DNA of 64,000 bases, taken from the IMG/VR virus record IMGVR_UViG_3300050343_000177, positions 1 to 64,000 of that record. The stretch is one strand, 5' to 3'. The notes under the pieces were generated by a model. It was not told the origin of the DNA, did not search any database, and saw only the letters and a list, made by a program, of their open reading frames with translations. This stretch comes from a virus. Positions 41,777 to 62,588 of this stretch are shown one piece after another. The first letter of the stretch is position 1, and every line of letters starts with the position of its first letter. Position numbers and translations under genes: made by a program.

Positions 41777-41972
41777 CAAAAGCGTTTGACTCTAAACCTC
41801 AGTCAATAAGCAGGCTAGACCTTCCCCAATTTATAAAGTAACACAGCCTCCAAAGCTAGTGATTATTAAGACAATCTGCACACTACATTATTATGTATGC
41901 ACATTAATTTCAAGCAACCACATATTTGTTTTTTAAGTTCGCTAATATTAAAGTGTTGAAGGCATAATTGAT

Positions 41973-43136: not shown

Positions 43137-43970
43137 CTCCTTGGTTCGTAGTCACTTTACTTGTGTCATTACAGAGGTATTTACCCTAGTTCCTTTTACA
43201 CGTTCCACTAATGTTCGCCACTTCGTGGCTCACGGCTGCGCGGTGTTGATTGTTATGCAGCAGTGAGTATCTCTTGATTCTCTCTGGTGTTATCTCTGCC
43301 TACCCAGTGGCCTCCCAACAGCCAGCAGCCTTGGGGCTCAGCCGCCCCTTTATTCGAGAGTGTTCTTTATTTGAATTAATGAGATGTTTACTTTAGTAGA
43401 TCTTTCTACAATGACTGAATTTGAAACCTTTCCATCATATTACTTAGCTAATCGCAAGTTAACTATGTTAGTAAGAAAACACAGTTTCTAGAAGTCGTTA
43501 CCTCATATGGCATGAGTGACAATTATTCCCCCTCACGGGGGTTTATTTCTCTGTGCTCTATACATTAATTCTTATGTTATTCGGTGCTGTACTTTTCTCC
43601 TTGAGTTATCTCACAGGTCGCTCTCTCGCTGAGCGTAAGTATATCCGTACTCTTACACAGAAGGGAAGTTACCAAACACCTGGTGCTTTCCTTTCGTTAC
43701 TTAAGTAACATCTATGGCCCCTAACGGGGCCTGTATTTCATTGTGTTCTTTATATCTGTTCTGTGTTTCGTTGTCGTTCTGTCTTTGCTGAATCCCCTTT
43801 GGGTTCTCCTGGCGTTTGTGCTTCCCGCGTTGCTATGCCTTTGCTGCCTGTGGTCTTTGCCTTCTGGTGGCTTCGGCTTGCTCCGCGTGGTTGCGCTGTC
43901 TTTGTTGTCTGATCCCTCTCCCCCGCAAAGCGGGGGTTTATTTCATTGTGTTCTTTATCTGATTTCTCAG

Positions 43971-44382
43971 ATGGGTATTGACTTCCGCGCTTGTCTCTAT
44001 GTTGCGAATCCTTCTCAGGACGAGCCAACCGTTATCCCACTTGCCTATCTAGGCAACGGCGATATCAAGCGTGCCATGTACGACCTGCTCACCAAAGATG
44101 AGGACGGTTTCCCCCACTCCCGGTGGATCTATTCCAATCGATGAGGGCACTCCTGCATTCGAAGCACTCGATAGTCTACTTTTCGATGTAGACGTTGATC
44201 TTGAAATCCTTAAGAATCGGCTTGAGGATGCTGAAAGTGACCGTGATGATGATAAGTGGCACCGAATCTACCAAGATTTTAGGGGCACCAAAGATCATTA
44301 CGACGTGTTGAACGACACTGTCAATGCCATCAAAGCTTCTTCCGGTAATCCTTCCATTACCTGTGAAATTGGTTGGTGGTAA
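43971..44382 (+). CDS. Early hypothetical protein (frameshifted)
   Basis: MGIDFRACLY.. joins ..CEIGWW*; lies between two hairpin elements. Confidence 0.55.
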
Positions 44383-44848
44383 CACTTATGGCCCCTAACG
44401 GGGCCTTTATTTCATTGTGATCTTTATTTATTAATCAAATGGCTTATTTCTGGTATGCAATCATTGATACTGACATCACTGAGTATTCCCATGTTTTAGC
44501 TGGACCGATGCCTGCCCTTTATTGGGCTGTGACTCGTGGTCCTGCTGCAATGCCCTATATTTCCTTTGATGATGATGATGATGAGTAACAACTATGGCCC
44601 CTAACGGGGCCTTTATTTCATTGTGTTCTTTACTTCAATTACACATGAAGTCACGTACTAATTCTGACCTCAAAGTTATTACACTTCGTCAGACGATCAA
44701 GGCTTCCCTCAAGAATGCAGCTTCAGTTGCTTTCTTTGACCCAGCTGCAGATCCTCGTCACGTAGCAGCCCTGCTTGCTAACGCTAGTTAATAACTATTC
44801 CCCCCCTCCGGGGGGTTTATTTCACTGTGATCTATATCTATCAAGCAG

Positions 44849-45076
44849 ATGATTAAGCCCTTTAGTGCTATCTTCTTTGGTGCTACTCTCGGTTTCATGT
44901 CACTTATTCCTTTACAAGCTCTGACTAACAGTCACGCTAAGGCTAAGTGTTCCGATAACGCTGATACTCACACTCTTGTATCTGTACGCGCCTTCGCAGG
45001 CGATGCAGATTACTGTGTGGCTAACAAGTATCTCACTCCTGATCGTATTGCTACTCACTACGGTCCTGGTTACTAA
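44849..45076 (+). CDS. Early small protein with signal/TM segment
   Basis: Fills one cassette. Confidence 0.6.
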   Translation: MIKPFSAIFFGATLGFMSLIPLQALTNSHAKAKCSDNADTHTLVSVRAFAGDADYCVANKYLTPDRIATHYGPGY

Positions 45077-45662
45077 CATCTATTCCCTCCTCACGAGGGT
45101 TTTTTCCTTTGTGTTCTTTACTTCATCAACGATGCAAGTACAACACAACTCTCACGAAGAAGTGCCGCTTCGGTATCTCTGAGTGGACATTCGGTCAATT
45201 ATCTTCTGGTTGGCTAGCTGCAATTGGTCCTCGTGGTAAGAAGATCTTCTTCGCCAACCTTGAGCAGATGGATGCTTGTACATCTAAGTTCATCAATGAC
45301 TATCACTATAAGAAGCAATCAACTGAACTGGTTCAACAGTTAAGTCTTGCTATCTAACAGCCCTATGGCCCCTAACGGGCCTTTATTTCATTGTGTTCTT
45401 TATCTGTTCATCAGATGACACTTCAACAATCTATCCTCACTGGTGCATGTGTTGGAGCTATTGCTTCCATCCTTCTGTTTTTTACAGTTGATGCCTATCA
45501 CACATTCATCATGTGGCAATTTACTCACCTCTGGTATCTGCTCCCATGTGCATTCATTGGTGCTCGCAGTTGCTTATGTAACTGACTAACAGACTATGCC
45601 CCCTACCGGGGGCTTTAGGTCGGTGTGCCCTATTCAGGGTTGTTCATTTACTTGTGTATTTC

Positions 45663-45935
45663 ATGCGTTTCAAAATCCCTGGTCAAGACGTCTCTGTCCG
45701 TCTATTCGAGCGTGTATCAACTACTGACTCTCAGTACGACATCTTTGATGTTGGTCTTGAGCAAGCTGACGGTTCTATCGACTCTATGGTCGTTGGTGGT
45801 TCTTTCTCTTACGCTAAGTCTCTTGTCAAAGCTATGGACAAGAAGGCTGAAGAGAAGAAGACTCCTGTCCCTGTCACTGTCCTCAATACTGATACATCTC
45901 CTGAACCTGTATCAGCTGAACCTGCAGCTGCCTAA
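45663..45935 (+). CDS. Early hypothetical protein
   Basis: MRFKIPGQ..; fills one cassette. Confidence 0.6.
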   Translation: MRFKIPGQDVSVRLFERVSTTDSQYDIFDVGLEQADGSIDSMVVGGSFSYAKSLVKAMDKKAEEKKTPVPVTVLNTDTSPEPVSAEPAAA

Positions 45936-45965
45936 TACTCTCTCCCCCCTCACGGGGGGGGTTTT

Positions 45966-46326
45966 TTACTGTGGATTATTGCCCATGACTGGTGTTTGTG
46001 ATGCCAAATCGTACAAAGCACCAATACCGGAACTCACTCCTATTAAACCTGCGGCTGGTACGCCGTACCTGACTCCAGCATTAACTGCTGGTACTCCATA
46101 ATCCCATTAAGGCTCGGAGTATGTCATTCTCCTCCTCTACCGCAAACTTCCGTGTTGCTGGTGCCCCAGCTACTAAGCCTGCTGCTGCTTGGACACCTTG
46201 TCCCATGCTTGCTTGCTTTGGCTTAAACCCACTGATGTATTCAGCTAATTTACTAGCGTATGCATCATCGAAGTTTCTTACCTTCTGTCCTGCCATTCGC
46301 AGGCTATCCATAATTTGCTTACGCAT
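45966..46326 (-). CDS. Late-type RMAG protein lying antisense within the early array (frameshifted)
   Basis: MRKQIMDSLRMAGQ..; continues YGVPA..MGNNPQ*; TACAAT-like -10 box upstream. Confidence 0.55.
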
Positions 46327-46421
46327 TACTTACATAACTAGTAGTATATTTATTGTACTAAGAATAACAATTCCCCTCTATCGAGGGGTTTGAATCATTG
46401 TGTTCATCATTTATATCTTCA

Positions 46422-46793
46422 ATGACTACATCAACTCCTGAAACCACCTCTACTGAAACTCTTGAGTACCTGGCTAAGGTTCAACAAGTGAAGGACCTCC
46501 AGACTGCTCGCTGTCGTGGATGGGCTTACTTCCTTGGTGCTTACTTCACTGGTCCTATTTGGCCTGGTGTAGTTGCTAACCGTACTGGCGAATGGACACC
46601 CTTCTGGGTTGGACTTGGCCTCGGTGTTGTCTCCTTACCTTTCGCATTCCTTGACTTAGGTATCATTAGTTCTTTACCAGCCGCTGGCGTTGGTACAGCA
46701 ATGATGGCTTCCAAGTCTAAGGATAAGCGTCGGTTACTCAACATCGTTAGTCCTGAACAGGCTGACGTAAAGCTCTTCAGTTCCGGTTTCTGA
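46422..46793 (+). CDS. Early membrane protein
   Basis: Hydrophobic segments; fills one cassette. Confidence 0.6.
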   Translation: MTTSTPETTSTETLEYLAKVQQVKDLQTARCRGWAYFLGAYFTGPIWPGVVANRTGEWTPFWVGLGLGVVSLPFAFLDLGIISSLPAAGVGTAMMASKSKDKRRLLNIVSPEQADVKLFSSGF

Positions 46794-47328
46794 TCCCTCT
46801 ATTCCCCCCTTATCAGGGGGTATTTCCCTTTGTGCCTTTCTTAAGTGCACAATGCCTTACTACTCCACTCGTAATATCGCCATTGTTGATCATGAGATCA
46901 ATGTGGATGATATGACTCCCATGCACTATGAGTACGAATCCTATGAGGCTCGTGATCGTGGTGACTTCGATGAACTCTTAGAGCTTCTTGGCTTCTAAGT
47001 ACCCTCCCCTGTCCTACCGGATGGGGGTTATTCGTCGTGCGATTCGCGTAGGTCTTAAAAGGCCGCCCGCAAAAATCGCGTAAATAGTTAATATCTAAAT
47101 AAGGGCCTATATATAAAGAAGCCGTGCATACTTTATCCCTAAACATACTAATAGCTCTGTCTATCGTCTTACCTCTACCTACACAAGCTACTCCTCGTTA
47201 TGACGAGCTGATGTGTGAAGAGGTAGCTGAAGCTGTTAATGAGAGTGTTCTCTGGGGCACTCTTACACAAGCAGAAGCTGACGATATATCAGATCAGCTG
47301 CTATGAACTCTATCACCTAATTACATCC

Positions 47329-47849
47329 ATGAAACTATTCCGCAATCTATGGCTGCTGCCGCTAGTGGCCGCTGTTTCTATGTCCACTCCCTGCACTCGC
47401 TAAAGTCGATGCTGGTACTGTCAATCTTCTAGAAACTCTAGATGATTACGGTATAACTGTTGAATACAATCTGCTCACTGGTTCTAGCGACGGTTATGCA
47501 AGGTAGGTATACCACTAAGACAAGTTGATGTCTATCTGTTATAAAGGTCAACCTGATGCATTCGAAACGCATGACACTGTTCGCCATGAAACGATGCATG
47601 TGCTTACAACATTGTGCAGCTCTACGTCGTGGTGATCCACGTGGTATCGTTCCACTAGCTATCAATCCTACTGAACGTCAATCAGTGGGTATCACAAGTT
47701 CTTGCGATCTGGTCATATTAATCGAGATCAAAGAGTAACTTTATCCTGCTCGAAAGCTCATCAGATTGAACTAGAAGCATTTGCAGGCGCAGCTCACTAT
47801 TCAGCTGATGAATTAGCTAGCTTAGTCAAATCTTGGTGTACCAAAGTAA
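47329..47849 (+). CDS. Possible HExxH metallopeptidase-like protein (heavily frameshifted)
   Basis: Signal-like N-terminus, DTVRHETMHVLQHC, ELEAF. Confidence 0.4.
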
Positions 47850-50847
47850 TACATTAATAAGACCCCTACATAAAGAAGCAGTCCTACTATTCTCCTCTAA
47901 CAAATTATGAAAATCTCTACTCTCGGCGCTCGTTCTCTCTGCCGCCTCTGTTTTACCTGTCTCTGCAGGCATTCATGACTTCAATCCTACTAACGCTGCT
48001 CCTGTTCCTACAAGAACTAAAGCACAAGTAGGTCAAGGTCAATGTGTCAGCTACTCGTGACGGCAGCAAGCTTTGCTATCATCAAAACTGCTGCCTCTAG
48101 TAATTCTCTATCTGCGATCCTCGATGTTGATTATCCTAATGCTACCTCAAGTTGCTCACATTGACTGCAGTACAGGACGCTGGGGTGCCTTCGGTGACCT
48201 CCCTAAGGCAACACTCTCGAACTGGTATTTAGGTCAATTCTGTCCTCACTTATGGTTGATACATTAATGCCCCCTATCGGGGCTTTTGTCAATTCGTGTT
48301 CATTCATATATCTAACTATGAACTTTACCTCTGGATCCCGATCAGAAGCTGTTGGTACACCCGAATACGAAGAGATCTTCCAAGAACAACTATGACAGGC
48401 GACGTATGTTGCTTGACATGATCGAAGAAGATCGTATGTATTCACAGCTTCAGTACCCCTACCGTGCATTCTCAAACTAAGTATGACTGTACTTATGACT
48501 CAGCAAACACTATCCTGTCCTTGCAGTGATCGGTTCGCTAGGTATCCTCTCAACCGGTGTCATCCTTACGTACTCCTTCGCTCGTAAGGAATCGTATGGT
48601 AACCGTAGATACCAATAATAGAACCTCTTGCCCCCTATCGGGGGCTTTTTTCAATTGTGTCCTTTAGATATTTCTAATGACTACATAGCTTCTTCTTCTA
48701 ATAAAGAAGCACTTGCTTTCCCTCCAGCTCAAGTCATTCCTGACAGGTATTATGTTTGTCAAGACTCCATTGACTGGAAACTGCAACTTGAACGCGCACG
48801 TGACGGCTGGAATTACATAACGTCGGTCTCGTTATTGCTCTTATAGGTGAAAAGTTACACGATGCTGGCCGTTGGTTAGCAGAAGTTTGATCAATGATCT
48901 ACTTCCTTTGTGTAACGATCTTCATCTATGGCTGATGTTTGATCTCAACTAACAACACTTGCCCCCGATTGGGGGCTTTTTTTCGATCTGTGTTCTTTAG
49001 TCTATATCACATGACTCAATCGTGTATCCCTGATTCAATCTCTATGTCTGACCTTGAGTCATTCGCTAAGAAGGCTGTAACTCCAGTTGAAGAAGCCTCT
49101 TTACGATGGTCTCACTGCAACTGAAGTTCAAGAGCTTGCTATGGAAACTCTCCGTGGCATGACTCGTAAGTGCAAAGACCCTATGGTCGAAAAATGCATG
49201 ATGCTTGCTATGGCAATGTCATGGGTTAAATGGCACACAGATCTCGCTCAAGAGATTATGCCTGCTACTGCTGACTCTGACACAAGATGAAGCAGCTACT
49301 GAGTTTGCTACCTGTCTCCTACGTGATGCTGGTAAAGCTCAAGCTATCTATACCCTTGTTCATGACATCAGCATGGACAATGACTTCATCTTAGGTCTGA
49401 TCAGACTCTGAGTAACAACATTACCCCCTATCGGGGGTTTTGTTTCTCTTGTGTTCTTTAGTGCACATTCTTGTGCACCCAACACTCTGTCAAGCGGATC
49501 TTCAAGAGTATAAACGCCGAGCTCGCGTGTGACACCGCACCGCACGTAAACCTGTCAAACACTGCAAAGTTATCTACAGACTTTCATGCCGAGTAACATG
49601 GCAATCTGTGTAGCGACTTACATTCCATATTAACCTTTGCTTGAATCACTTTCATGGCTAACACTGTTTCTTTTGGGGTTATCGGTTCTACCGGTACTCA
49701 GTCCAGGCCAGCAACTAAGTGCTCCCAATCCCACAATTGTTCATTCAACTGTGGTTGGTAGGAGATCTTTTGGTCAACTTAAGTCACACAAGCCTAATCC
49801 GCTGAGGTATTTCACCTCGTGACTCGTCGCAGGTCTTCTGCTGCATAACATCTAATTCCTCACCTAACGGTGGGATTTTTTTGGTTGCACTTTGCATCTT
49901 TTGCATGGCCTCCTACGGCTCTCTATCTTCGCAAACAAACGCAACGCAATCTTTTCAAAGCGCTGAGTTTGACACTAGACACAGAATTATTACAGCGGGT
50001 TCTACTCGTAAAGAAATCAAAGAGCAGTTTGAACATGCTCTAAAAACGTACACGTTCTTCTGCAAACTCGTCTAACAATATAGATGAGTTCTACGCAATT
50101 AATTTTCACGATGGATGTAGTTACTTAAAACCAGGGTATTCTAATGATGTATTTGAACGAGTCTCTACATTGATTTCTCGACATGATAATTACAAACTCA
50201 TCAAAGAAGTCACTGTTTTGCAAATGACTTCGTTAAATATGGATGCTAAGAGTCTTGAAAAAGTATCTAAGCAAATTCTTCGTCCATTGCTAGCCAATGA
50301 CTATGGCTATCGTGACGCTTTTAACGACGACCACCTCGTTACTATGCCAATAACTGAATTTTACTTTGGAAATTCAGATGTTTTATTTGATAACAGAATC
50401 TTTCATGATTTAATTGTTAAAACATACATCTGGACCAAAAGTATTAGTTTTTAATCAATAACATCCATTGCCCCCTAACGGGGGCTTTCTTTCAGTGTGT
50501 TCATCATCAATCGATGGACGTATGTTGTATATATACAAAAACATGAACGCTGCAAATATCCTTGACCGTTCCAGAAAAGATTTTACTGACGCTTTACCCG
50601 TACACGCTCTAACTTCTCCTCTCACGAAACTCAAATGGCTTATCAATCAATGCTTCCTATTGCCAAGCAACTCAAGGAAGAATCAGGTACTCGGTTCTCC
50701 GTTAAGTATCTGATCAAGGTTTATCAAACACCTCAAGCCCTTCAGCACAAGCTGACCTGGGTTCGTGGTTGTAAAGCCTCTGTTGGATGACATCAATTGC
50801 CCCCTATATGGGGGCTTTTTTCATCTGTGTCCATTATTAATAATTAA

Positions 50848-51132
50848 ATGTCTAACACGAACTTCAACGCTGTTCTCTTCAACGGCAACAACAGTAATCC
50901 TAGAGCTCCTCAGCTTTCTGGATTTGTATCAATCCCTGTATCACAAGTTGATCAAGTGATTGCACTATTGCAAGCACAGCGTCGTTTTTCTGACAACGGT
51001 GTTGAAACTGTGCGTCTTCCTCTGTCCTTCTGGCAAGCACAAGGAAAGGCACCGCTTGCTTATAAGGGCCAAAGTTCATTCTGGACTGGCACTTCCGTTC
51101 CTGCAGTAGACCCAACTCCAGCTGTCGCTTGA
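50848..51132 (+). CDS. DUF736-like small protein
   Basis: LF.....NPRAPQLSG.V....LSFW. Confidence 0.4.
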   Translation: MSNTNFNAVLFNGNNSNPRAPQLSGFVSIPVSQVDQVIALLQAQRRFSDNGVETVRLPLSFWQAQGKAPLAYKGQSSFWTGTSVPAVDPTPAVA

Positions 51133-51196
51133 GTCTTTTCCCTCCTAACGGAGGGATTTTTTCTTATCCTTAAGTAAACAACAGCCGTATCAGACA

Positions 51197-51472
51197 ATGC
51201 CTACTACAGCTCCAACTAAAACTAAAACTATCCCTACTGTCACACCTGATTCATATGAGTGGCACACCTGTGCTGACGGCCAGTATCGCGTAGTTCAAAC
51301 TCGATTTGGTCTATACAAAAGTGTTGACAAGCTAAATAATGATCTCATTACTGGATTAACTGAAGAAGCAATTCACAATTGCACTCCTCTGCATTTACTG
51401 GCACAGCAGCCTGACTATGACAAACGTTACGATACCGTTATAGGTAAAGCTACTGTGACACCTGACTTATGA
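51197..51472 (+). CDS. Hypothetical protein, paralog 1
   Basis: Highly similar to 51865-52140. Confidence 0.7.
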   Translation: MPTTAPTKTKTIPTVTPDSYEWHTCADGQYRVVQTRFGLYKSVDKLNNDLITGLTEEAIHNCTPLHLLAQQPDYDKRYDTVIGKATVTPDL

Positions 51473-51864
51473 ATCCAGAAAAACAATTAAAGAAACTAGC
51501 GAAAACTTACAAGGTATCGATGCAGTTCACTTGAGAACTAACGATGCCTACTGGAATCAGCACCCTGAAAAAGTATATAAAGTCCAGCGTTAACTAATAT
51601 TAACATTGTAAAACTTCGAACTTGGAAATGACTCAATCAACTACTTGGGAACAGTTTATCTACGGGATTGTTAACTTTGGAGACTGTTGGTACGCTCGTT
51701 TTGATACGGAAAACTGTTGTCGTGAAGATTTCTGGGAATGGTTATCAACAGGATATTATAGCATGTATGTCTATCCTTATCCAGATAACGATCCTTGGAA
51801 TTTAGCCGGTCGCGATCCTATGGAATCTGTATACAAAAAATGAATTAACACAGGAGAACAACTC

Positions 51865-52140
51865 ATGACAACTGCTACAAAGACTAAAAAGAAAGATATT
51901 CTCACTGTTTCTACTGATAACTATGCCTGGTTCACTTGTGAACACGGCTCCTACCGTGTCGTCGAGACACGCTTTGGCTTATACAAAAGTATTGATAAGC
52001 AAGGCAACGACCTTATCACTGGCTTAACTGAGCAAGCAATTCACGACTGTACTCCCTTACATTTATTGGCACAGCAGCCTGATTACGATGGAAAATATGA
52101 CACCGTTATCGGTTCTGCATCCGTAACTCCTGACCTATGA
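51865..52140 (+). CDS. Hypothetical protein, paralog 2
   Basis: Shares TRFGLYKS and NDLITGLTE.AIH.CTPLHLLAQQPDYD. Confidence 0.7.
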   Translation: MTTATKTKKKDILTVSTDNYAWFTCEHGSYRVVETRFGLYKSIDKQGNDLITGLTEQAIHDCTPLHLLAQQPDYDGKYDTVIGSASVTPDL

Positions 52141-52881
52141 ATGAACATAAACAATTGAAAAAGCTTGCGAAAACTTACGCTAAAGCTGACTCCTGTGTTG
52201 ATAGAGACACCGCTCAGAAGCTTATTAAAAAAGCTACAAAAATCAGAGCTAAATTAGAAAAGTAATTGATATATTAACAGTGCATACCACAACAATTCTT
52301 TCCCTTTTCTCTGGCTTTTGTGTCGGCTCTATAGCCGCTGCTCTAATCCTTCATTGATACTGTATGAACATAAATATTTCTCTATCTATAGAAGACTACA
52401 CGATTCTCATTAATGCTCTTCACTACTACAAGAAAGCAGAGAAGCGCGGCAACTTTCAACAATATGACACTGACCGTATCAATCAACTAAGAGACCATAT
52501 GGCCTCACAGTTTATGAGTGGCTTCAGTTAAACAGCCCTTCCGCCCTATCGGGCGGTTTAGTCGCTTGTGTTCTCTATATTTCCTATGGAACAATCTTAT
52601 TGCCTCATCTCATCGTTCAACCTCGAACGTATTGATGAAATGCTCGTTCGTGCTATCAACATCTGTGGTAGCCCTCGTCCATTCTCTGAAACTACTGAAG
52701 AGGATGACTGCACTGCCTCATATGCAGGAGCTTATGGTTACTCCTATCAGACACTGAAAAGTATCAAAGAGTATATCGATACGGCTCGACCTTATGACCC
52801 TTCTATCACTGGCGTTCCGTTCTGACTTAAATACACAAGCAGGTCACTACTTATTATTTAAGTAGCTAGACTTGCTTTATT

Positions 52882-52953
52882 GGGGCATTAGTGAAACGGT
52901 TATCACAATAGATTGTCTATCTATTATTAGCAGTTCGAATCTGCTATGCCTCG
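52882..52953 (+). tRNA. tRNA-Asp(GTC)
   Basis: Acceptor GGGGCAT/ATGCCTC, D arm GTGA/TCAC, anticodon arm ATAGA-TTGTCTA-TCTAT, T arm AGCAG-TTCGAAT-CTGCT; TAGACT -10 box upstream; no CCA. Confidence 0.92.
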
Positions 52954-52971
52954 TTATAAGTACTACTGAAT

Positions 52972-53451: not shown

Positions 53452-53506
53452 CTGTCATTTAATACTAGATATAATGTCTGTATTAAACATGTAACTTGTT
53501 AATATC

Positions 53507-54118
53507 ATGGGAAGGCGTACTGCACATACTGGACTTAATCGTAATAACGATTTCTACAATAAGTACGGTCAACTTAAGGAGGGCTACAGCTTTACAGGTG
53601 GCAATAATATGGTCGCACGTGGCACTGGTGACGTTAGTGTTCGCTATGGTGCCGGTAAAGATGGTACAAATTATAAAATAGAGCAACGCACTATTTACGG
53701 TAAAGAATCTCAACCTAAAGCTGCTCCTCAAAAAGCACCGGCTCCTGCCCCTAAATCTAAGCCTAAGCCTAAGCCTAAGCCTGAACCTGAACCTATCAAA
53801 CACTCACCTGAGATTCAACAAGCTAAAGCAAGTGTGGCTAAATACAAAAGTGAAATACTTAATGATCAAACATCTAAATCAATGTACGGCAATGATCAAG
53901 ATTTACTAAGTGCTTACACCCAAGACTTTGACGCTCGTAATAGTACTGAAGGAGAGAAGTCTACTCCTAACCTAAACTTAGATTTACCTAATAACGTAGA
54001 CACTACAGATAACAATTACTTCGCTAATGGCACGTTTGACCCTGTCAATAAATCTGACGAAGCAGCACAGAACTTCTTTTCTAACAAAAAGAACCTTGTC
54101 CTAAACAACTTCAGATAA
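53507..54118 (+). CDS. Low-complexity protein with PK/PE repeat
   Basis: Shares HSPEIQQAKA.V.KY..IL with the next gene. Confidence 0.65.
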   Translation: MGRRTAHTGLNRNNDFYNKYGQLKEGYSFTGGNNMVARGTGDVSVRYGAGKDGTNYKIEQRTIYGKESQPKAAPQKAPAPAPKSKPKPKPKPEPEPIKHSPEIQQAKASVAKYKSEILNDQTSKSMYGNDQDLLSAYTQDFDARNSTEGEKSTPNLNLDLPNNVDTTDNNYFANGTFDPVNKSDEAAQNFFSNKKNLVLNNFR

Positions 54119-54149
54119 TTTAGAATAGATATATTCTTGTTATTATCCA

Positions 54150-55109
54150 ATGTCTGTATATAAAGGTGAAACTTCCTACAGTGCTAATAAAGATGCAGCA
54201 CAAGCATTCCTTGACGACAAACTTTCTAAGAACAAATACAACTCTTCTAATGACTATTCAACAGAAGGGTTTGACCCCTCTAGCTATACATCCGAGCAAC
54301 TGAGCTCACTCAATGCCTCTGGTGGTCCAACTAAGTTTGGTAAGAAAACGTATAATGTTGTCTCTAATCAAGATGAGATTGATAACTTTAATAATGCACC
54401 TAGTACTGCAACAAGTACTTGGGATGGTAAAAACTATACTCGAAACTCAATGAACTCTGATGATTTGAAAAATCATTTTGGTCTTGCAGACGGTAGTGAT
54501 GTTGGATCTGGTTTTAATAAATCCACAGGTGCAACAGATGATAATCAAACCAAAGGAAATGCTTTACTTGGTGAAGGTTATTTGACAGACGATAACTACG
54601 AAAAACTTCGCAATTCTGATAAGGTTTGGGATGCTTATGCTGCTATGGAAGGGCAAGAAGCTGCTGATGAAAAACGTGAAGGAAATCCTGACGGTCTCTC
54701 TATTAATGCACTTGATGGCTTATTTGATAACCTGACAGCTAATGCAGACCCTAAAAAAGCTCCTGAACCTATAACTGAAAAAGAAGAAGTCGTTCACTCA
54801 CCTGAAATCCAACAGGCTAAAGCACGTGTTGGTAAGTATGAGAACGACATTCTCTCTGGTAAGACTTCACAAGATATCTACGGTGGCGCTGATGATTTTT
54901 ATACAGACTATCAACTGAAGCTTCAAGGCACGCCTAATCCAATAGGTAACAACAGTAACTATCGGTTTGACGATGGCGCACTGAACTTCAACGGCTCTGA
55001 TATCTCTGCTGATGAAAAACCACCTGCCCCTGTACAAGCAGCTTCTTCGTTCCTTGCTAATCAAAAGAAAAAAGCTATCAAAGACTTTAACATTAAACCT
55101 ACGAACTAA
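54150..55109 (+). CDS. Acidic low-complexity paralog
   Basis: HSPEIQQAKARVGKYENDIL. Confidence 0.65.
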   Translation: MSVYKGETSYSANKDAAQAFLDDKLSKNKYNSSNDYSTEGFDPSSYTSEQLSSLNASGGPTKFGKKTYNVVSNQDEIDNFNNAPSTATSTWDGKNYTRNSMNSDDLKNHFGLADGSDVGSGFNKSTGATDDNQTKGNALLGEGYLTDDNYEKLRNSDKVWDAYAAMEGQEAADEKREGNPDGLSINALDGLFDNLTANADPKKAPEPITEKEEVVHSPEIQQAKARVGKYENDILSGKTSQDIYGGADDFYTDYQLKLQGTPNPIGNNSNYRFDDGALNFNGSDISADEKPPAPVQAASSFLANQKKKAIKDFNIKPTN

Positions 55110-55239
55110 AAACTACAAAACTACGCTAGCTACGCTACTTCCTAACCCTTTCTGAAAAAATACATCTATAGAGGGAAGGCCACTGCCTATTAAAAAAGGA
55201 CTTTATTAGAATCGAGCGTAGTTTGTGTAGCAGCGTAGT
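55110..55239. repeat. Dispersed ~125-bp iteron-like element, copy C
   Basis: Identical 27-bp left arm, CTAACCCTTTCT, divergent right arm keeping GCGTAG/GTAG repeats. Confidence 0.85.
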
Positions 55240-55302
55240 AATTAACTCTATTTCACAATTATACAAATGCTTGTTAGACTAGTCATATCAAGCGATTATA
55301 AG

Positions 55303-55700
55303 ATGAAAAAGAAACACAAAAAACTACCTCCTTTAGAACATTTACTCTCTCTTTATGATTATGACCCCAATACTGGTGGACTATTAAGAAAGGAGCAGAA
55401 CCCAGTGAGCTCAATGCTATTGGCGCAGTTGGACTTCTGGAAGAGGATACAAATTACGTGTATGTCAAAAGGATACATTTCCTATTACATCGCATCGTTT
55501 ACTTTATGTTTCACCGTAAGGACCCTGGTCAATATGTGATTGATCACATCAACGGTGACCCTGCAGATAACCGCATTAAGAACTTACGCCGTTGTCGTCA
55601 GACAACTAACGCTAAGAACCTACGCAAGAAGGGTAAGTACGTCGTCGATGACGAAGGCGTTGGTCGCTGGGTCTCTGATGTTGTCAAAGCTGCTGTATAA
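55303..55700 (+). CDS. HNH endonuclease (frameshifted)
   Basis: LYDYDPNTG.L; HRIVY..IDHINGDPADNRIKNLR. Confidence 0.8.
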
Positions 55701-55795
55701 CTGTAAAACTGTAAAACTGCAGTGCTGTTAATGCTTTCCTGATAAATTTCGCACTTTCGGGCTCATTATCCTCATAGAGCTGTAACATATCCTTA

Positions 55796-55990
55796 TTGCT
55801 TCTTCGAGGGCTTATCAAACGTATAACTGTGATGGTTCCACCGGACATACATAGAGAGCTCAAGCTTCATGCTGTAGCGAACGATACAACTCTCCAAGAT
55901 TGCATAATGCAAGCCATAAAAGATCATTTACAGCACAAATGTAGAACTGTAAATGTGGATTCAAAATGTGCAGAGTCGAACACTAAATAG
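55796..55990 (+). CDS. Ribbon-helix-helix (ParG-like) DNA-binding protein
   Basis: KRITVMVPPDIHRELKLHAV..TTLQDCIMQAI. Confidence 0.65.
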   Translation: MLLRGLIKRITVMVPPDIHRELKLHAVANDTTLQDCIMQAIKDHLQHKCRTVNVDSKCAESNTK

Positions 55991-56088
55991 AGACATTCGA
56001 CTGTCGCATGTATACCTTCAGATTGCCCCCTATCGGGGGCTTTATTCGTTTGTGCCCCATTTGGGGTTTGTCCTATATATGTCAATCA

Positions 56089-57084
56089 ATGTCCCCTGCT
56101 AATTTCACATCCGGCTGGCTCGGCAACGGAGAGCGTGCGTGGCACGGCCAAGGTGTCGTCACCGAAGGCACACTCCCAGCGCGAGAAGCGTTTGAAACAG
56201 CGAACGCACTCTTCACTGTCGAGAAACGAGAGCTTACTTATCCAAAAGAAGTCATCGGACATCCGCTCTCTGACTCAGAAGCTATCCGCTTCACAAGTGA
56301 GCCATCAGGTGCCTACGGTCTCGTCCGCACTGACACCCAAGACTTGCTTGGCATCGTCAGTAAGCAGTACGAAATCGTACAGAACGAAAGTCTCCTACGC
56401 ATGGCGGAGTTCATCCGCGAAGAGGTTGACATGGACACCGTCGTCGTTCTATCAGATGGTGGCAAAGTCTGCTTTACCGCCACACTCCGTGGTGCGACGC
56501 AGGACATCGTCCGTGGTGACACAGTCAAACGCCGCATCGTTGGCTTCCTAGGCCATGACGGTAAGACTGGCTGTGGTGCAATGTTCACCAACATCCGTGT
56601 TGTGTGCACTAACACCCTTGCTGCAGCTATGTCTGCTGCTACTGCAAAAGTGAGCATCCGTCACAAGACTGGTGCTAATGACAACTTCGATCAACTGATT
56701 CAGTCAATCGATACTGCACGTGAGACATTCAATAATGAAGTCGAACTATTCCGTCAGTTTGCCGAGACACCTATTGAGCAAGCTGACTTCCGTGAACTCT
56801 TAGAGCGTGTCTACGCCAGTGAGATTCCTGAAGATAAGCAGATCGATGACTTACGTAAGTATCCCAAGCTCCGTCGTGCCTATACCGGTGGCTTAGGTCA
56901 GCGTGAGTTTGCTCCCTACACCATGTGGAGCGCAGTCAACAGTATCACTGAAGTAGAAACAAGCACGCAGATTGGAACACGCTCTCAGCAACGTCGTCAA
57001 TTTGCTAGGGCTAACTTTGGTGGTGGTCTGTCTATAAGCAGACGTGCTATTCAAGAAGCTGAGGCAATGCTTTCGCTTGTCTAA
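56089..57084 (+). CDS. DUF932 family protein
   Basis: AWHG.G, RTDT..LGIVS.QY.IVQN, HDG, IRVVCTNTL, IRH, T.W.A.N.ITE. Confidence 0.85.
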   Translation: MSPANFTSGWLGNGERAWHGQGVVTEGTLPAREAFETANALFTVEKRELTYPKEVIGHPLSDSEAIRFTSEPSGAYGLVRTDTQDLLGIVSKQYEIVQNESLLRMAEFIREEVDMDTVVVLSDGGKVCFTATLRGATQDIVRGDTVKRRIVGFLGHDGKTGCGAMFTNIRVVCTNTLAAAMSAATAKVSIRHKTGANDNFDQLIQSIDTARETFNNEVELFRQFAETPIEQADFRELLERVYASEIPEDKQIDDLRKYPKLRRAYTGGLGQREFAPYTMWSAVNSITEVETSTQIGTRSQQRRQFARANFGGGLSISRRAIQEAEAMLSLV

Positions 57085-57152
57085 TGTGGTCTTTCATTTA
57101 TACTTTACCTCACTAATTACATTCCAGTTAGTTAGAATGAGGTATAAGCTAA

Positions 57153-57710
57153 GTGATAATGACTATACGAAAAGGATTTACTGCAGTCTCTGAACAGATA
57201 CATATAGGTGATACTCGTGATAACTTGACAATCATTGACATAACTCAAAAAGTTATGGAACATTGGAAAGATAAACGCAAGTCTCACCAACTTACTATCA
57301 AATGTGTCTGTGGTAATACTTATGAAATAGGTGCTCGACGCTGGCTTAGTGACAAACCTAGCAGTTGTTCCACTTGCTCCCGTAATCACGGTCAAAGCAA
57401 GACACAACTTTATAACCTTGTCTCTCACGCTAAGCGTCGTGCGAAAGATAACAACCTTCCGTTTGACATTACTTGGCGAGACCTTGAGATACCAGACACT
57501 TGTCCTCTTCTAGGCATACCAATTACTTCTGGCAACGGCAAAACTTGCGACACTAGTCCAACTATTGACCGCAAACGTCCAGAACTTGGGTATGTCAAAG
57601 GCAATGTGTGGATTATTTCTCACAAGGCTAACCGTATGAAATCAGACGCAACCTTTAAAGAAATTCAAACCTTCTATGAAAATTACTACTCAATTCTCAA
57701 TACGGCCTAG
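57153..57710 (+). CDS. HNH-like homing endonuclease
   Basis: C.CG..SC.TC; IPDTCPLLG..SPTIDR..GYVKGNVWIIS.KAN.MK. Confidence 0.75.
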   Translation: MIMTIRKGFTAVSEQIHIGDTRDNLTIIDITQKVMEHWKDKRKSHQLTIKCVCGNTYEIGARRWLSDKPSSCSTCSRNHGQSKTQLYNLVSHAKRRAKDNNLPFDITWRDLEIPDTCPLLGIPITSGNGKTCDTSPTIDRKRPELGYVKGNVWIISHKANRMKSDATFKEIQTFYENYYSILNTA

Positions 57711-57727
57711 TCTCCGTCTTGTTTGAT

Positions 57728-58015
57728 ATGGCGTATAAATACAATCACGACCGTTCCCATGACGCTCGTTTACAGAGGTGTCACGAACTAGAGCGTAAAT
57801 CCTGCCTTCGGGCAAACGCTCGGTTTGTAGTGATACGTGGCGATGCAGCGTATGACGGTACAGGTGCAGTTTATGACTACTCCTGTCCAAGTCGTCAATT
57901 ATTCTTTGATGACCTACGTACTGCCCGTGCTTACGCACATCACGCAAGTGATTTGTGTGACTGTGAATATGGCGTCTATCGATATGAATTTATCGAAGGT
58001 GTAAATGTCTGTTAA
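57728..58015 (+). CDS. Hypothetical protein
   Basis: Intact ORF MAYKYNHD. Confidence 0.5.
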   Translation: MAYKYNHDRSHDARLQRCHELERKSCLRANARFVVIRGDAAYDGTGAVYDYSCPSRQLFFDDLRTARAYAHHASDLCDCEYGVYRYEFIEGVNVC

Positions 58016-58033
58016 TTATTTACTCTATAAATC

Positions 58034-58270
58034 ATGAAAATCAAGATTATGTATGACGTTGTTACGTCATTTGTTCTTACTGTCGAACGTGATGAACTTC
58101 CTGAAGATCACGACGAACTGCTTGAGTCAGTGACTCGTGCTGAGCTTGCTGATTGTCCTATGGAGGTCCACGAGATTGAATGGGACAACCTTAAAGAAGC
58201 TTGGCGTTCTTCTACCTCGGATAACACAACTGTGATGGATGAGGACGAAAGCATTGATTACTACAAATAA
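58034..58270 (+). CDS. Acidic hypothetical protein
   Basis: 78-aa ORF. Confidence 0.55.
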   Translation: MKIKIMYDVVTSFVLTVERDELPEDHDELLESVTRAELADCPMEVHEIEWDNLKEAWRSSTSDNTTVMDEDESIDYYK

Positions 58271-58667
58271 ATGCTCTCTCTTGTTTAAATCATGATGTTC
58301 ACACCTATGCCACATTACTATTCTCCACGCGAGAGAGTTTACACCCACGCTCCATTGATTCGATCCCGTCAAGAGAAGGATGAAATTGAATACATTTCAG
58401 ACATCGCTATATATCTAATGGACAAGGATCCTGAGGATCGTAGACCAAAGAAGTGATTACTGATCTATAATCAAATAGTCGGGGCTCTGTTCTAAACATC
58501 CCCATTAAGTCCCGATCACAAGGGCCACGGGAATTGATCACCCGTGCAGTATTTAACTATCTGTTAACACTTATATTCGTACTTACTTAGTGCGTAGTTA
58601 AAGTTTCGCAGTTCGCTTATGAGGTGAACTGCAGCTTGTTTATCATTCAATCTATTTATATAAAACT

Positions 58668-59021
58668 ATGACTACCGAATTTGCAGCTATCAATGTAGAT
58701 GAGTTGAATGAATTAATTTCTAAATTAACTTTTAATGATCGACTAGAATTCTGTTTCAGATCTAAGTCCCCTGCTGTACTTGCCTGGATTACACAATCTA
58801 AATTTTGTGGTGTTAATACTGCTCTTAGGCTTTCAGAAAATCCATGTATACCTGCCTTAGTTGAACAAAAGCTAGCAAGTCATCAGTATTATCATGTCAG
58901 AGAAAGAATTGCAAAACAAACTGAAAACAAAAGCTTGTTAATCAAATTACTTCAAGATTCAACTGTAACAGTAAAACGAGCTGCTGAAAAGAGACTTAAA
59001 GAACTACTTTCGCTTGTCTGA
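58668..59021 (+). CDS. HEAT/LRV-like repeat protein
   Basis: LSENP..P..V..KLA...Y.VRE.IA; LL.D....VKRAA. Confidence 0.6.
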   Translation: MTTEFAAINVDELNELISKLTFNDRLEFCFRSKSPAVLAWITQSKFCGVNTALRLSENPCIPALVEQKLASHQYYHVRERIAKQTENKSLLIKLLQDSTVTVKRAAEKRLKELLSLV

Positions 59022-59118
59022 TAGTTAACATGTCAATTCTTACGTGTTAACTATTCATTGATTTGCTAACATTTATATTCGTACTTACTTAGTGCGTAGT
59101 TAAATATACCTAATTGTT

Positions 59119-59475
59119 ATGTTAAAGAAACTTACTACTGGCTTAATTGCTAGTGCATGTTTGTTGTCTGCAGCTTTGCCTATTAAAAGCAACGCAGCTA
59201 ACAGCACCATGCTTACTAGCTATTACGCTCACTACTTCCACGGCAGGACAACTGCCAACGGTGAAGCATTCAATATGTATGCCAACACCGCCGCTCACAA
59301 AACCCTCCCGTTTGGTACAAGACTTCGTGTCTGCTATTCGGGATGCGTGGATGTCCGCATCAACGACAGAGGACCGTATATCGGTAATCGTCAGCTTGAC
59401 CTTTCTTACGGCGCTGCTAAGCGCATTGGTCTGCTGGGTCCTGGTGTAGCAACAACTACCGTAACGTTTCTGTAA
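59119..59475 (+). CDS. RlpA-like double-psi beta-barrel lytic transglycosylase
   Basis: [39 protein letters not shown]. Confidence 0.9.
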
Positions 59476-59558
59476 CTCACAACGGTTAGTGTTCCGCGAT
59501 AAAGTGTAAATAAGCGGGAGCAAATCCCATGCTCCTGCTATACGAAACGGAGTGAATT

Positions 59559-59771
59559 ATGTCCAGAACTTACAGACAAGCAAAGCTTGATAACAACCAT
59601 TACAGAAACCCTCACACACAAAATGAGCGACGTCAACTAAACGGATTAATTGCAGATGCAAGAATCAATGATTGCCGTATCAGTCCTGCTAATCGCCTAT
59701 CTCGTCATATTCCTACAGACTTCGATGACTTGAAAGTTGCATCCTTTGCTGAAACTTTCTTCCAAGACTAA
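59559..59771 (+). CDS. Small basic protein
   Basis: MSRTYR..YRNP.TQNE..IPT.FDDL. Confidence 0.55.
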   Translation: MSRTYRQAKLDNNHYRNPHTQNERRQLNGLIADARINDCRISPANRLSRHIPTDFDDLKVASFAETFFQD

Positions 59772-59874
59772 GTAATAACACTTATGCGCATATCAAGACA
59801 TAACGTGTAGAATTATGAAGTAGGGATAACCTCCCGAGTACTTCGCCTTAATACACAAACAATGTCTTATTTAA

Positions 59875-60963
59875 ATGTCTTCAACTATTCTCACGCCCAG
59901 GTCTAATCCCCTTAAGGATACCTGGGATTCTTATCTCAACTGGGTCACAAGCACTAACAATCGTCTTTATGTCGGACTCTTCGGCACATTGATGATCCCT
60001 TGCTTGCTTGCGGCCACTACTTGCTTCATCATTGCTTTCATCGCTGCTCCACCTGTGGACATCGATGGTATTCGCGAAGGTGTCTCTGGCTCTCTTCTGT
60101 GGGGTAACAACATCATCTCTGGTGCTGTTGTCCCTAGCAGCAATGCAATCGGTCTTCATATGTATCCGATTTGGGAGGCAGCATCTCTCGATGAATGGCT
60201 CTACAACGGTGGTTGCTATCAGCTAATTATTTTCCACTTCCTTATTGGAGTCTGGTGTTACGCCGGACGTGAGTGGGAACTTTCCTATCGCTTAGGTATG
60301 CGTCCTTGGATCTTTGTAGCTTTTACTGCACCTTGTGCCGCTGCTACTGCTGTATTCCTTATCTATCCTATCGGTCAAGGTTCATTCTCCGATGGCATGC
60401 CTCTTGGTATCTCCGGCACTTTTAACTATATGTTGGTTTTCCAAGCAGAGCACAACATCTTGATGAACCCTCTACATATGCTCGGCGTAGCTGGAGTATT
60501 TGGAGGCGCACTGTTCTCTGCAATGCATGGATCACTTGTTACCTCTTCACTTGTTCGTGAAACGACTGAATTCGAATCACAAAACAATGGCTACAAGTTC
60601 GGTCAAGAACAAGAGTCGTATAATATCGTTGCAGCGCATGGTTACTTCGGTCGCCTAATCTTCCAATACGCAAGCTTCAATAACTCTCGTTCACTTCACT
60701 TCTTCTTGGCAGCATTCCCTGTTGTTGGTATCTGGTGTGCAGCACTGGGCGTTAGCACAATGGCGGCAAACTTGAATGGACTGAACTTCAATCAGTCAAT
60801 TCTTGACACTCAAGATCATGTTATCCCTACTTGGGCTGACATTCTGAATCGTGCCAATCTTGGCTTTGAAGTGATCCATGAAAGGAACGCCCACAACTTC
60901 CCGCTCGATCTTGCGTCAACTAGCGCCACACCTGTGGCCTTGATTGCACCATCTATTGGTTAA
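59875..60963 (+). CDS. psbA: Photosystem II D1 protein (divergent, E130 type)
   Basis: Full-length D1 with Y161, D170, E189, H190, H198, H215, S264, H332, E333, H337, D342, A344. Confidence 0.98.
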
Positions 60964-60970
60964 TTCAACT

Positions 60971-60996
60971 AGGCTCTATTACATAGGGCCTTTTTT
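60971..60996 (+). terminator. psbA terminator
   Basis: AGGCTCTA..TAGGGCCTTTTTT. Confidence 0.75.
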
Positions 60997-61145
60997 AATG
61001 CAATGAACCTAAACAAAGAACAACTGAATGATGTGAGACATGCAGTGGCTTACTATATGTACCACCACGTATCTATTCAGAACCCACGGTATAACGATTA
61101 TGAAGTTATACTACAATTGTTAAGTGATACTAAAGAGGAGGCTAA

Positions 61146-61457
61146 GTGAATGATATCGCTTGGGTAGCTGGAGTTTTTGAAGGAGAAGGTTCTATAAACC
61201 TTGTCCCAAATAGACCCAGCAGTGCAGCCCTTCAAGTTGCAATGACTGATTACGATATTATTCTCCGCATTCAACAAGTGCTAGGAGGTAATGTATATCA
61301 ACGTAAACAGTACAAAGCACATCACAAGCCTTGCTGGCTTTGGCAAGTGACTTCTAAAGAACAATGCTACGACGTGCTAACTAAACTATTACCTTGGTTT
61401 GGCGAGCGTCGTTCATACAAAGCTCTCAATACTCTTGATCATCTAGATAAAATTTAA
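61146..61457 (+). CDS. Single-motif LAGLIDADG-like protein
   Basis: WVAGVFEGEGSI, MTD.D.., GG.V, LLPW..RR. Confidence 0.75.
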   Translation: MNDIAWVAGVFEGEGSINLVPNRPSSAALQVAMTDYDIILRIQQVLGGNVYQRKQYKAHHKPCWLWQVTSKEQCYDVLTKLLPWFGERRSYKALNTLDHLDKI

Positions 61458-61458
61458 A

Positions 61459-61650
61459 ATGACTGTAACAAGTAACGAACGCGGCCAACAGAATCTCTGG
61501 GCCAAAGAACCACAAATGCAAATCATGGAGGTCCAAGTGACACACAACGAAATCGCAGAAAAGCTCAACGGTCGTCTAGCAATGCTTGGCGTTATTGCAG
61601 CCATTGGGGCCTATGCACTAACAGGCGATATTATCCCTGGTATCTTTTAA
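61459..61650 (+). CDS. hli: High-light-inducible protein
   Basis: AEKLNGRLAMLG..TG.IIPGIF; N.WAKEP.M. Confidence 0.95.
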   Translation: MTVTSNERGQQNLWAKEPQMQIMEVQVTHNEIAEKLNGRLAMLGVIAAIGAYALTGDIIPGIF

Positions 61651-61707
61651 CTAATGGGCGCAACTAGCGCCTATTATTGTTAGAATAAGTGGGTTGGAAT
61701 TAATACT

Positions 61708-62025
61708 ATGACCCACGATATTGCGTGGGCCACTGGTGTTTTTGAAGGTGAAGGTTATATTGTTCTTCACCCTAAATGTGTTTCAGTTCGTATTGGAATG
61801 ACCCAATCAGATTTGGATATTCTTGAACGTATGCAACAACTCTTCGGAGGCACCATTGGTCCCAAAAGCTACAAAGCTAAACCAGCTCACTGGAAACCTA
61901 CTTGGCAGTGGCGACTTGGTCGTTCTGCAGAAGTTCGTTCTGTTTTAGAACTGATGCTTCCGCTTCTTAGTGAGCGACGCGCTTGTAAAGCACAAGACGC
62001 ACTTGACAAACTTGATGGAGTTTAA
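61708..62025 (+). CDS. Single-motif LAGLIDADG-like protein (paralog)
   Basis: WATGVFEGEGYI; similar to 61146. Confidence 0.75.
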   Translation: MTHDIAWATGVFEGEGYIVLHPKCVSVRIGMTQSDLDILERMQQLFGGTIGPKSYKAKPAHWKPTWQWRLGRSAEVRSVLELMLPLLSERRACKAQDALDKLDGV

Positions 62026-62177
62026 CTATGTATTTTAATTTTCCAGGCGGGTTCTACGGAGGACCTTGCCTGATGTTTAACATTTACTCCTGGTAAATAC
62101 TGACCCAATGCCCCCGACTGGGGGCTATGATTAAAAAGTGACCAACGAATGGTCTGTCGTTTATATCTCAAATCACA

Positions 62178-62350
62178 TGGAAATGTCACGCGAGCAGCTT
62201 CAAGAGCTGACTGAAATAATTGAAGACACGATTCAATACAGTTGCGATCAATGGCAAATCTCAGGCGAGAAAGCCTGGACTGTCCTTCACTATCTCTCAA
62301 TTGCAAAGCTTGCTGAGCTTGAAGGCTTAGTCACTTCAGATGTTGCCTGA
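62178..62350 (+). CDS. Small conserved-looking hypothetical protein
   Basis: MEMSREQL..IEDTIQY.C..ISGE.AW. Confidence 0.55.
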
Positions 62351-62588
62351 TGGCAGCGTCTGTAAGCAACGTCTATGACGTCCTTGAATGCGTCAAAAAT
62401 AAAGTAGAAGAGCTATGCGTAGCAGAAGAGGTTTCTCCTCTGCTTGTATGGCTATTGCTACGGCAGCAAGCTGACTATCAGCTGTTACTTCTACAAGATT
62501 CAAACAAATAACTTCTATGCCCCCTACCGGGGGCTGTAGTTCGTAATGCCCATTCGTGGGTATCTGTTCCTTTATATTTTTTCTACAG

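Follow-up and report, generated by a model that had tools for sequence, protein, structure and literature searches.

The DNA analysed here (the window) comprises bases 1–64000 of an 80,431-bp IMG/VR virus record from an uncultured marine cyanophage. Structural genes occupy the minus strand up to 41.6 kb, and plus-strand genes begin at 42 kb with an array of small genes. Between these small genes lie ∼23 copies of a unit of ∼55 bases, hereafter the cassette, in which a small GC hairpin is followed by a T-rich run and then by a fixed 9-base box. The typical cassette follows the stop codon of the upstream gene by ∼8–12 nt and consists of a hairpin (GC stem of 6 bp, loop of 4 nt), a T-rich segment of ∼11 nt and the sequence RTG-TYCTTTA, with the ATG of the next gene located ∼20 nt further on. 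The cassette is a real, family-conserved and strand-specific element that is defined by structure plus sequence.

The assignment to the cyanophages is based on the psbA gene of this genome and on the gene content of a complete relative, which encodes hli, talC, thyX, ribonucleotide reductase (RNR), a family-A DNA polymerase and a VapE-type primase-helicase. Megablast and tblastn searches of GenBank phages returned no relative of this phage. The terminase has 996 metagenomic relatives at E ≤ 1e-20, many of them on contigs of ∼80 kb, which makes the phage family an abundant one in marine metagenomes. Compared with the short-read contigs of four independent and mutually agreeing runs, the record contains many 1-nt insertions and deletions, and the contigs give back perfect 6-bp stems at 45094 and 45376. 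Because these indel errors are systematic, the open reading frame (ORF) calls and reading frames of the record are unreliable, and cleaner relatives were used in its place where frames mattered.

Cassette copies in the small-gene array

A covariance model (R1) was built from 24 cassette copies and scanned over both strands of the whole 80,431-bp genome. R1 produced 23 strong matches at 34–66 bits, every one of which lies on the plus strand, and no match on the minus strand (Table 1). The initial annotation of the window had described ∼25 elements composed of a hairpin and an RTG trinucleotide at a fixed distance from each other, and this observation was confirmed. All 25 sites were inspected, and a script that searched for a GC hairpin plus RTG regained 22–23 of them, with the loop center and the RTG mostly 19–20 nt apart and a modal gap of 11 nt. 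Most of the 25 sites are strong, but three (43243, 47037 and 62138) are weak, and two sites that have a hairpin and a T run but no box (49842 and 51126) had been overlooked. Site 43243, with a 5-bp stem, no T run and no R1 match, is a doubtful member. A role of the RTG as a true start codon or as the beginning of an upstream ORF was rejected, because the frames stop at inconsistent places.

Table 1. Positions of the cassettes and associated features in the window.
Feature	Position	Strand	Evidence
Noncoding block conserved with the relative G002 (∼100 nt), upstream of first cassette	42650..42770; L036:12870-12990	+	Alignment
Cassette (hairpin GGGGC/GCCCC, T run, GTG-TTCTTTA)	43319..43376	+	R1 37.7 bits
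Cassette	43513..43569	+	R1 48.1 bits
Cassette (GGCCCC taac GGGGCC)	43702..43759	+	R1 64.3 bits
Cassette (7-bp stem, 3-nt loop)	43906..43964	+	R1 49.2 bits
Cassette	44376..44433	+	R1 62.2 bits
Cassette, best copy	44582..44639	+	R1 66.3 bits
Cassette	44785..44843	+	R1 54.8 bits
Cassette; perfect 6-bp stem after restoring the G missing at 45094	45070..45127	+	R1 53.8 bits; run contigs
Cassette; record lacks one G at 45376; next gene is a module found in two relatives	45351..45409	+	R1 60.8 bits
Cassette; second hairpin 45627-40 from the GTG, second box TGTTCATT at 45641	45583..45641	+	R1 53.1 bits
Cassette, variant box GTGGATT	45929..45987	+	R1 38.6 bits
Cassette	46358..46416	+	R1 51.3 bits
Cassette	46790..46848	+	R1 39.1 bits
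Doubtful member: imperfect 9-pair hairpin and GTG (site 47037)	46996..47053	+	R1 17.1 bits, E 0.37
Cassette	48253..48312	+	R1 38.5 bits
Cassette	48615..48673	+	R1 59.8 bits
Cassette, gap 13	48946..49006	+	R1 54.2 bits
Cassette	49409..49467	+	R1 56.5 bits
Hairpin and T7 run without box (terminator module alone)	49842..49901	+	R1 20.9 bits
Cassette	50455..50513	+	R1 59.2 bits
Cassette	50784..50843	+	R1 52.0 bits
Hairpin and T6 run without box; then five tightly packed cassette-less genes	51126..51179	+	R1 18.3 bits
Cassette (CCGCCC/GGGCGG)	52526..52584	+	R1 48.3 bits
Cassette before DUF932 gene; second hairpin 56055-56066, second box TGTCCTAT at 56069	56009..56068	+	R1 49.1 bits
Marginal member (site 62138): hairpin, GTG, weak tail, no box	62094..62154	+	R1 34.3 bits
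Cassette, ATG for GTG; second hairpin 62549-62560, second box TGTTCCTT at 62565	62505..62562	+	R1 44.4 bits
Indel-error positions in the record	43476, 44111, 45094, 45142, 45376, 45565, 46100, 46804 and many more		Contigs from four runs

Conservation of the cassette across the phage family

A search with the exact 21-nt tail identified one 69-kb relative, in which the identical tail trails different stems. Further relatives were collected as 23 loci around a conserved DUF932 gene, which come from ∼20 marine phage contigs of 78–84 kb. These loci contain 127 copies recognized by R1, each on the gene strand, and in five complete genomes the copies are grouped in one block of 10–20 kb on one strand. 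No match to R1 was obtained in three marine Synechococcus genomes, which indicates that the signal is the phage's own, and no Rfam family matches the cassettes.

The consensus was derived from 136 non-identical copies of this genome and its relatives. Forty-one different stems occur among these copies, and pairing is found in 97.8% of the stem cells, compared with 64.8% in shuffles and 35–53% when the partner columns are slid. Double changes are observed at all six stem pairs, and orthologous genes of different phages are headed by different yet paired stems. The stem covariation noted in the initial annotation thus extends to the family and indicates that the hairpin is selected as a structure.

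The elements had also been described as purely structure-defined, which does not hold for the family because the loop, the T run and the 9-nt box are conserved in sequence. The loop has the consensus TAWC (T.89, A.96, W.90 and C.81) and is 4 nt long in 104 and 3 nt long in 13 of the 136 copies. T is found after the stem at positions 1 (98%), 3 (90%), 6 (81%) and 7 (77%), and the box TG-YYCTTTA is composed of T13 (.82), G14 (.78), Y15, Y16, C17 (.74), T18–T20 and A21. The T of the TG is located at position 13 after the stem in 106 copies (78%) and at positions 12–14 in 128 copies. According to the initial annotation, a lack of conserved spacing in relatives would have refuted its proposal; the hairpin-to-TG distance is kept across ∼20 phages. 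A protein that measures from the hairpin to the RTG, as initially proposed, need not be assumed, because the spacing falls inside one conserved 21-nt string.

The box is tied to the hairpin more tightly than to the start codon of the next gene, given the fixed position of the TG and a TG-to-ATG distance that varies from 18 to 26 nt. The stem-to-ATG distance is mostly 30–33 nt (∼31 nt), and an ATG-anchored logo contains no motif sharper than those of the hairpin-anchored logo. In four gene families, a second small covarying hairpin starts exactly at the RTG (45625, 56052 and 62546 in the window), and a second TGTYC box is located past this hairpin with the usual distance to the ATG maintained. 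The second hairpin has the expected look of a 5'-terminal stabilizing hairpin and would fit an RNA 5' end at the RTG. In the relative G002, an 87-codon ORF that consists nearly entirely of Arg/Met/Ala repeats (MRAxRQA; L037:8650-8910, plus strand) lies just upstream of a second-hairpin cassette; the frame may be spurious or may encode an RNA-binding protein rich in arginine.

The absence of a Shine-Dalgarno sequence, pointed out initially, is true of the cassette genes but is not special to them (4% compared with 9% of other genes, p=0.21). Shine-Dalgarno sequences are scarce in all genes of the family, and a role of the box as a Shine-Dalgarno substitute was discarded. General structure of the 5' untranslated region was likewise discarded, with folding z-scores of −0.79 compared with −0.91 in gene-internal controls.

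Gain and loss of single genes at cassettes

The cassettes are points of single-gene gain and loss. At locus L034, a 235-bp module composed of a cassette and a 58-codon gene is located between two identical 50-nt cassette copies, whereas locus L029 has one copy and no gene. A relative of the L034 module gene comes after cassette 45393 in the window. The genes that follow cassettes form 18 shared clusters and 26 singletons, occur in shuffled orders between phages and, in the array of this genome, are nearly all unique to it. Cassettes contain 17% of the homology breakpoints, compared with 4% at random. Cassette copies within one genome are near-identical over 40–50 nt and would therefore also serve as points of homologous recombination.

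One contig of run X6 that joins cassettes 44417 and 45393 through 19 shared letters, skipping three genes, was not counted. In all four runs, contigs break at these repeats, whose 40 nt exceed the assembler's 31-letter word, and the join may therefore be an assembly artefact. Other joints at cassettes, in run X3, had short sides or low depth and were not counted either. Contigs of a second related phage, with the stem GGCGTC, are present in all four runs and match only a 31-nt tail plus box of the window (44609–44639), which indicates that cassette-sharing relatives co-occur in the same samples. In practical terms, the cassette can serve as a tag, searchable with the covariance model, for gene modules exchanged between co-occurring phages.

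A candidate terminator and gene-start signal

The hairpin and T run of the cassette display the sequence features of an intrinsic terminator in ∼80% of copies. At least five T are present within 8 nt after the stem in 107 of the 136 copies (79%), and the hairpins average −10.3 kcal/mol. The layout is also that of an intrinsic terminator, with a GC stem-loop and a U tract downstream of the stop codon on the coding strand. In the 41.5–53 kb region, terminator-like sites are sixfold enriched (45 compared with 7.8±2.7 in shuffles). The initial annotation had argued from copies without a U tract that the elements are not plain terminators; three copies of this genome are indeed weak-tailed, but the large terminator-like majority does not support the argument. 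The hairpin and T-run sites at 49842 and 51126, which lack the box, indicate that the terminator and box modules are separable.

Approximately twenty terminators in series would not be passable by simple read-through. The distal genes would be starved of read-through RNA, so that either a restart signal or antitermination would be needed. Moreover, the first cassette of G002 precedes the first gene, after ∼0.4 kb without a long ORF, and a pure terminator at this position would block all expression.

The cassettes do not resemble sigma70 promoters. No sigma70-like site coincides with any cassette, and such sites are depleted in the 41.5–53 kb region (14 compared with 24±5.4 in shuffles), in agreement with the initial statement that no −10/−35 pattern is visible. 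Registers with the −10 element in the T run, the −10 element in the box, an extended −10 element from the TG or the −35 element at the upstream AACA were tried, and all of them fail at the essential −11A/−7T positions or in spacing; the AACA lies at a variable distance of 4–8 nt from the stem. The unit does not fit the boxes of LexA, NtcA or MotA, nor does it fit the consensus pause signal. The geometry of a hairpin-stabilized pause, in which the hairpin lies 11–12 nt before a Y|G step, is compatible with that of the unit.

Proteins that could read the signal were sought in six genomes. No single-subunit or two-barrel RNA polymerase was found in them, although very divergent polymerases could escape detection, and a PF00940 profile search gave no match in the same genomes. 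The DxDGD polymerase motif is absent from any plausible gene. Two orphan proteins of 510 and 628 residues that are encoded beside the array yielded no lead in a PDB sequence search or among atlas look-alikes, and no protein of the complete relative is larger than a tail-fibre-like one of 1231 residues. A complete sigma factor of the ordinary cyanobacterial group-2 RpoD type is present in all genomes; it contains regions 1.2, 2, 3 and 4 and scores 396 bits on TIGR02997, above the model cut-off. Its gene is located among minus-strand genes, at ∼25500–26400 (minus strand) in the window, where it is frameshift-broken in the record, and at L035:13481-14422 (minus strand) in G002.

Upstream of the first cassette, the conserved noncoding block (Table 1) contains the words AAAAACGCYCTATAGG ... 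AAAAATGCTA ... AACAAAAAAAATA in the two divergent relatives compared. The block is separated from the first cassette by an ORF-poor, T-rich leader of 0.4–0.6 kb and could be the site of one or more rightward early promoters or a small RNA. The divergent intergenic region at 41640–41790 contains repeated CTAC(G) words in an inverted arrangement, as does the corresponding region of G002 (L036:12610-12740).

We tentatively interpret the cassette, with a probability of roughly 0.4, as the fusion of a terminator at the end of one gene with a phage-specific start signal for the next. The 6-bp GC hairpin and its T-rich tail would act as an intrinsic terminator that ends the RNA of the upstream small gene. 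The box TG-YYCTTTA, located 12 nt past the stem, would start the mRNA of the next gene rather than merely head it, and the new RNA 5' end would lie at or near the RTG, ∼20 nt ahead of the ATG. In the array, each gene would accordingly form a self-contained module together with the start box ahead of it and the terminator behind it, and the near-identical copies would double as homologous recombination points at which single-gene modules are inserted, deleted and reordered. The box could be read by the host RNA polymerase with an additional factor. This interpretation is favored because the first cassette of G002 stands before the first gene, the box is anchored to the hairpin, and the second hairpins start at the RTG.

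Several features weigh against a terminator fused to a start signal. No part of the unit matches a sigma70 −35/−10 promoter, and the ∼31 nt between the stem and the ATG are too few for a canonical promoter plus leader. Because the six genomes contain no detectable RNA polymerase of the family's own and the sole sigma factor is an ordinary group-2 protein, the start box has no known reader. Position 12 is a pyrimidine (T) in 27% of the copies, which is unusual for a start site. The box-less sites at 49842 and 51126 still precede genes, so that some read-through must occur. In addition, the core of the box is that of boxA, a known protein-binding motif of RNA.

A more general proposition, which we consider rather doubtful, is that a compact stop-and-go signal, independent of any sigma70-type promoter, acts on the host RNA polymerase at each boundary between genes. 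The polymerase would either terminate at the hairpin and U tract and restart a few bases on at the RTG, or be reloaded with host Nus factors and a phage protein at each gene, where the hairpin and boxA core would form a nut-like site. The terminate-and-restart variant would resemble the gene-end/gene-start signals of negative-strand RNA viruses. If true, either way would represent an undescribed organization of early transcription in a DNA phage. The variable early/accessory array of the family is organized by one compact signal that falls outside the known bacterial promoter rules.

Other readings place the function of the unit in the RNA. In a nut-like site, a serious rival that we nevertheless regard as unlikely, the box would be a boxA-type NusB/NusE (S10) site and the conserved-loop hairpin would be boxB for a phage protein. 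A polymerase that has passed one terminator would acquire Nus factors and read the later terminators, which would provide an immediate-early to delayed-early switch; in a variant, the sites would, by their number, titrate Nus factors, or they would repress translation in the manner of E. coli suhB. Box positions G14–A21 (G-T-Y-C-T-T-T-A) coincide with positions 1–8 of the 11-nt boxA consensus of gamma-proteobacteria, GYTCTTTAANA, the order of a GC hairpin and then a single-stranded box is that of rrn leaders, and regulatory roles are known elsewhere for boxA sites located no more than 50 nt from a start codon (PMC5725501). Exact GYTCTTTA is present in 35 and GYTCTTT in 52 of the 136 copies, the most conserved box positions (C17, T18 and T19) include those that inactivate E. 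coli boxA when mutated (C4 and T6), and GCTCTTTTGGA is contained in the rrn leaders of two marine Synechococcus. The TAWC loop, conserved while the stems vary freely, also suggests that a protein reads the loop, which a plain terminator does not require. However, the 3' half of boxA (AANA, positions 9–11) is not conserved in the phage box, the host spacer boxA, GAACCTTGAAAA, departs from the phage box at positions 2, 3, 5 and 8, and a pyrimidine-rich 8-mer may match boxA by chance. Lambda needs only two nut sites; this genome has twenty sites, each placed directly after a U tract and thus after a terminator, not before it. No N-like protein was identified, and binding of Nus factors to the box is putative. 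Alternatively, the RTG could mark a processing site in long array RNAs that start at leader promoters near 42.7 kb. Host RNase E or a phage nuclease would cut just before the RTG in the single-stranded U-rich linker, leaving the upstream mRNA with a 3' end that the hairpin would shield. The single-stranded sites favored by cyanobacterial RNase E carry A at −3/−4 and U at +2 (PMC8682795). A cut before R12 in the common form of this genome, TTTCATT|GTG, puts A9 at −3 and T13 (82% conserved) at +2, and the second hairpins would occupy the new 5' ends. Nevertheless, A9 is present in just 25% of the family copies, which leaves the family consensus unfit, and the conservation of G14, C17 and T18–T20 is not accounted for by the specificity of RNase E. 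The near-invariant T1 and T3 after the stem are a mark of termination that a 3' protective hairpin does not need, and we judge processing unlikely. Hairpins between early genes would give mRNAs a protective 3' hairpin here as in T7 early RNA. The T7 sites are irregular helices of ∼20 bp that are cut by RNase III, whereas the present stems of 6 bp are far too short for such sites and are followed by a U tract. It is quite improbable that the cassettes are plain intrinsic terminators, with a functionless box and flanks that are alike merely via duplication and gene conversion. Stems shared within a genome (GCCCCC here; GGCGTC or GCCGCT elsewhere) point to concerted evolution, and recombination between copies is directly seen at L034/L029. 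Yet one box and one spacing persist across ∼20 phages despite 41 diverged stem types, the box is duplicated with the ATG distance kept where a second hairpin is inserted, and the two box-less terminators demonstrate that the modules are separable.

Two further readings concern the DNA itself. The initial annotation had proposed a hairpin or cruciform promoter, which in its N4-type form would be a template-strand hairpin (loop GWTA) from which a dedicated phage polymerase starts at a fixed distance. The cassettes share with N4 promoters a GC stem of 5–7 bp whose sequence is free if paired; the stem length, the rarity of G-T pairs (2 of 672 cells) and the GNNA-type template-strand loop are compatible with a DNA hairpin, and the hairpin-to-RTG spacing is fixed. 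N4 promoters, however, have a template-strand loop of 3 nt with a purine in the middle and a start 11 nt from the loop center, and they require an injected giant virion RNA polymerase of ∼3500 residues (PMC4496689). The cassette loop is 4 nt long in most copies, the RTG is 19.5 nt from the loop center, and N4 has three promoters per genome. No protein of the complete relative approaches the N4 polymerase in size, the PF00940 and DxDGD searches detected no candidate, and the orphan proteins next to the array provided no lead; a promoter of this type is highly improbable. The least probable reading treats the cassettes as integron-like attC sites (AAC...GTT around a folded hairpin) that a phage tyrosine recombinase uses for gene-cassette capture. 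Of 136 copies, 66 have AACA in the 18 nt ahead of the stem, compared with 7 in a control window, and 25 of 135 copies, compared with 0–2 in controls, have an outer inverted repeat (GAACAC...GTGTTC, 6 nt or more). The modules travel one gene at a time, and a divergent tyrosine recombinase (window 5169–5975, minus strand) is conserved in all five genomes tested. This gene is far from the array, however, and its product reaches just 18–25 bits on Xer-type models and does not match integron-integrase models. attC sites are imperfect palindromes, 57–141 bp long, that contain extrahelical bases and recombine at a fixed G|TT crossover point, whereas the cassette stems are perfect 6-bp GC helices and the outer AACAC/GTGTT repeat is found in only ∼20% of copies. 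Furthermore, the L034/L029 indel is bounded by 50-nt identical repeats, as left by homologous recombination.

The proposed combination of a terminator and a start signal has a parallel in the promoter early stem-loop (PeSL) cassettes known from the T4-type phages RB49/phi1, T4/PST and KVP40/nt-1 (PMC2839356, PMC4122927). In both systems, a terminator stem-loop and a gene-start signal (proposed here) lie in a hyperplastic region between small genes that are non-essential, conserved copies alternate with variable genes, and indels or swaps are bounded by copies. PeSLs carry a sigma70 promoter (−35, N17, −10) and a Shine-Dalgarno sequence after the stem-loop, both of which are absent from the cassettes. 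The cassettes instead have a short stem-to-ATG interval of ∼31 nt, a sequence-conserved loop and a box at a fixed 12 nt from the stem, and their phage family is not T4-like. The array is thus PeSL-like in logic but lacks the defining sigma70 promoter and contains a fixed, non-promoter-like box.

Other features of the array and its surroundings were also observed. A two-gene unit, consisting of a 91-codon gene and a short gene, is present in diverged tandem copies at 51197–51600 and 51865–52265 (plus strand) with no cassettes between them, and a Shine-Dalgarno-like AGGAG is located upstream of 51865. Among its replication and auxiliary genes, G002 has one for a 75-residue protein homologous to translation initiation factor IF-1 (PF01176, E 1.6e-15; L037:12585-12809, plus strand). 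Directly past the last gene of the dense cassette array, the window contains a tRNA gene at 52882–52953 (plus strand; Rfam, 58.6 bits).

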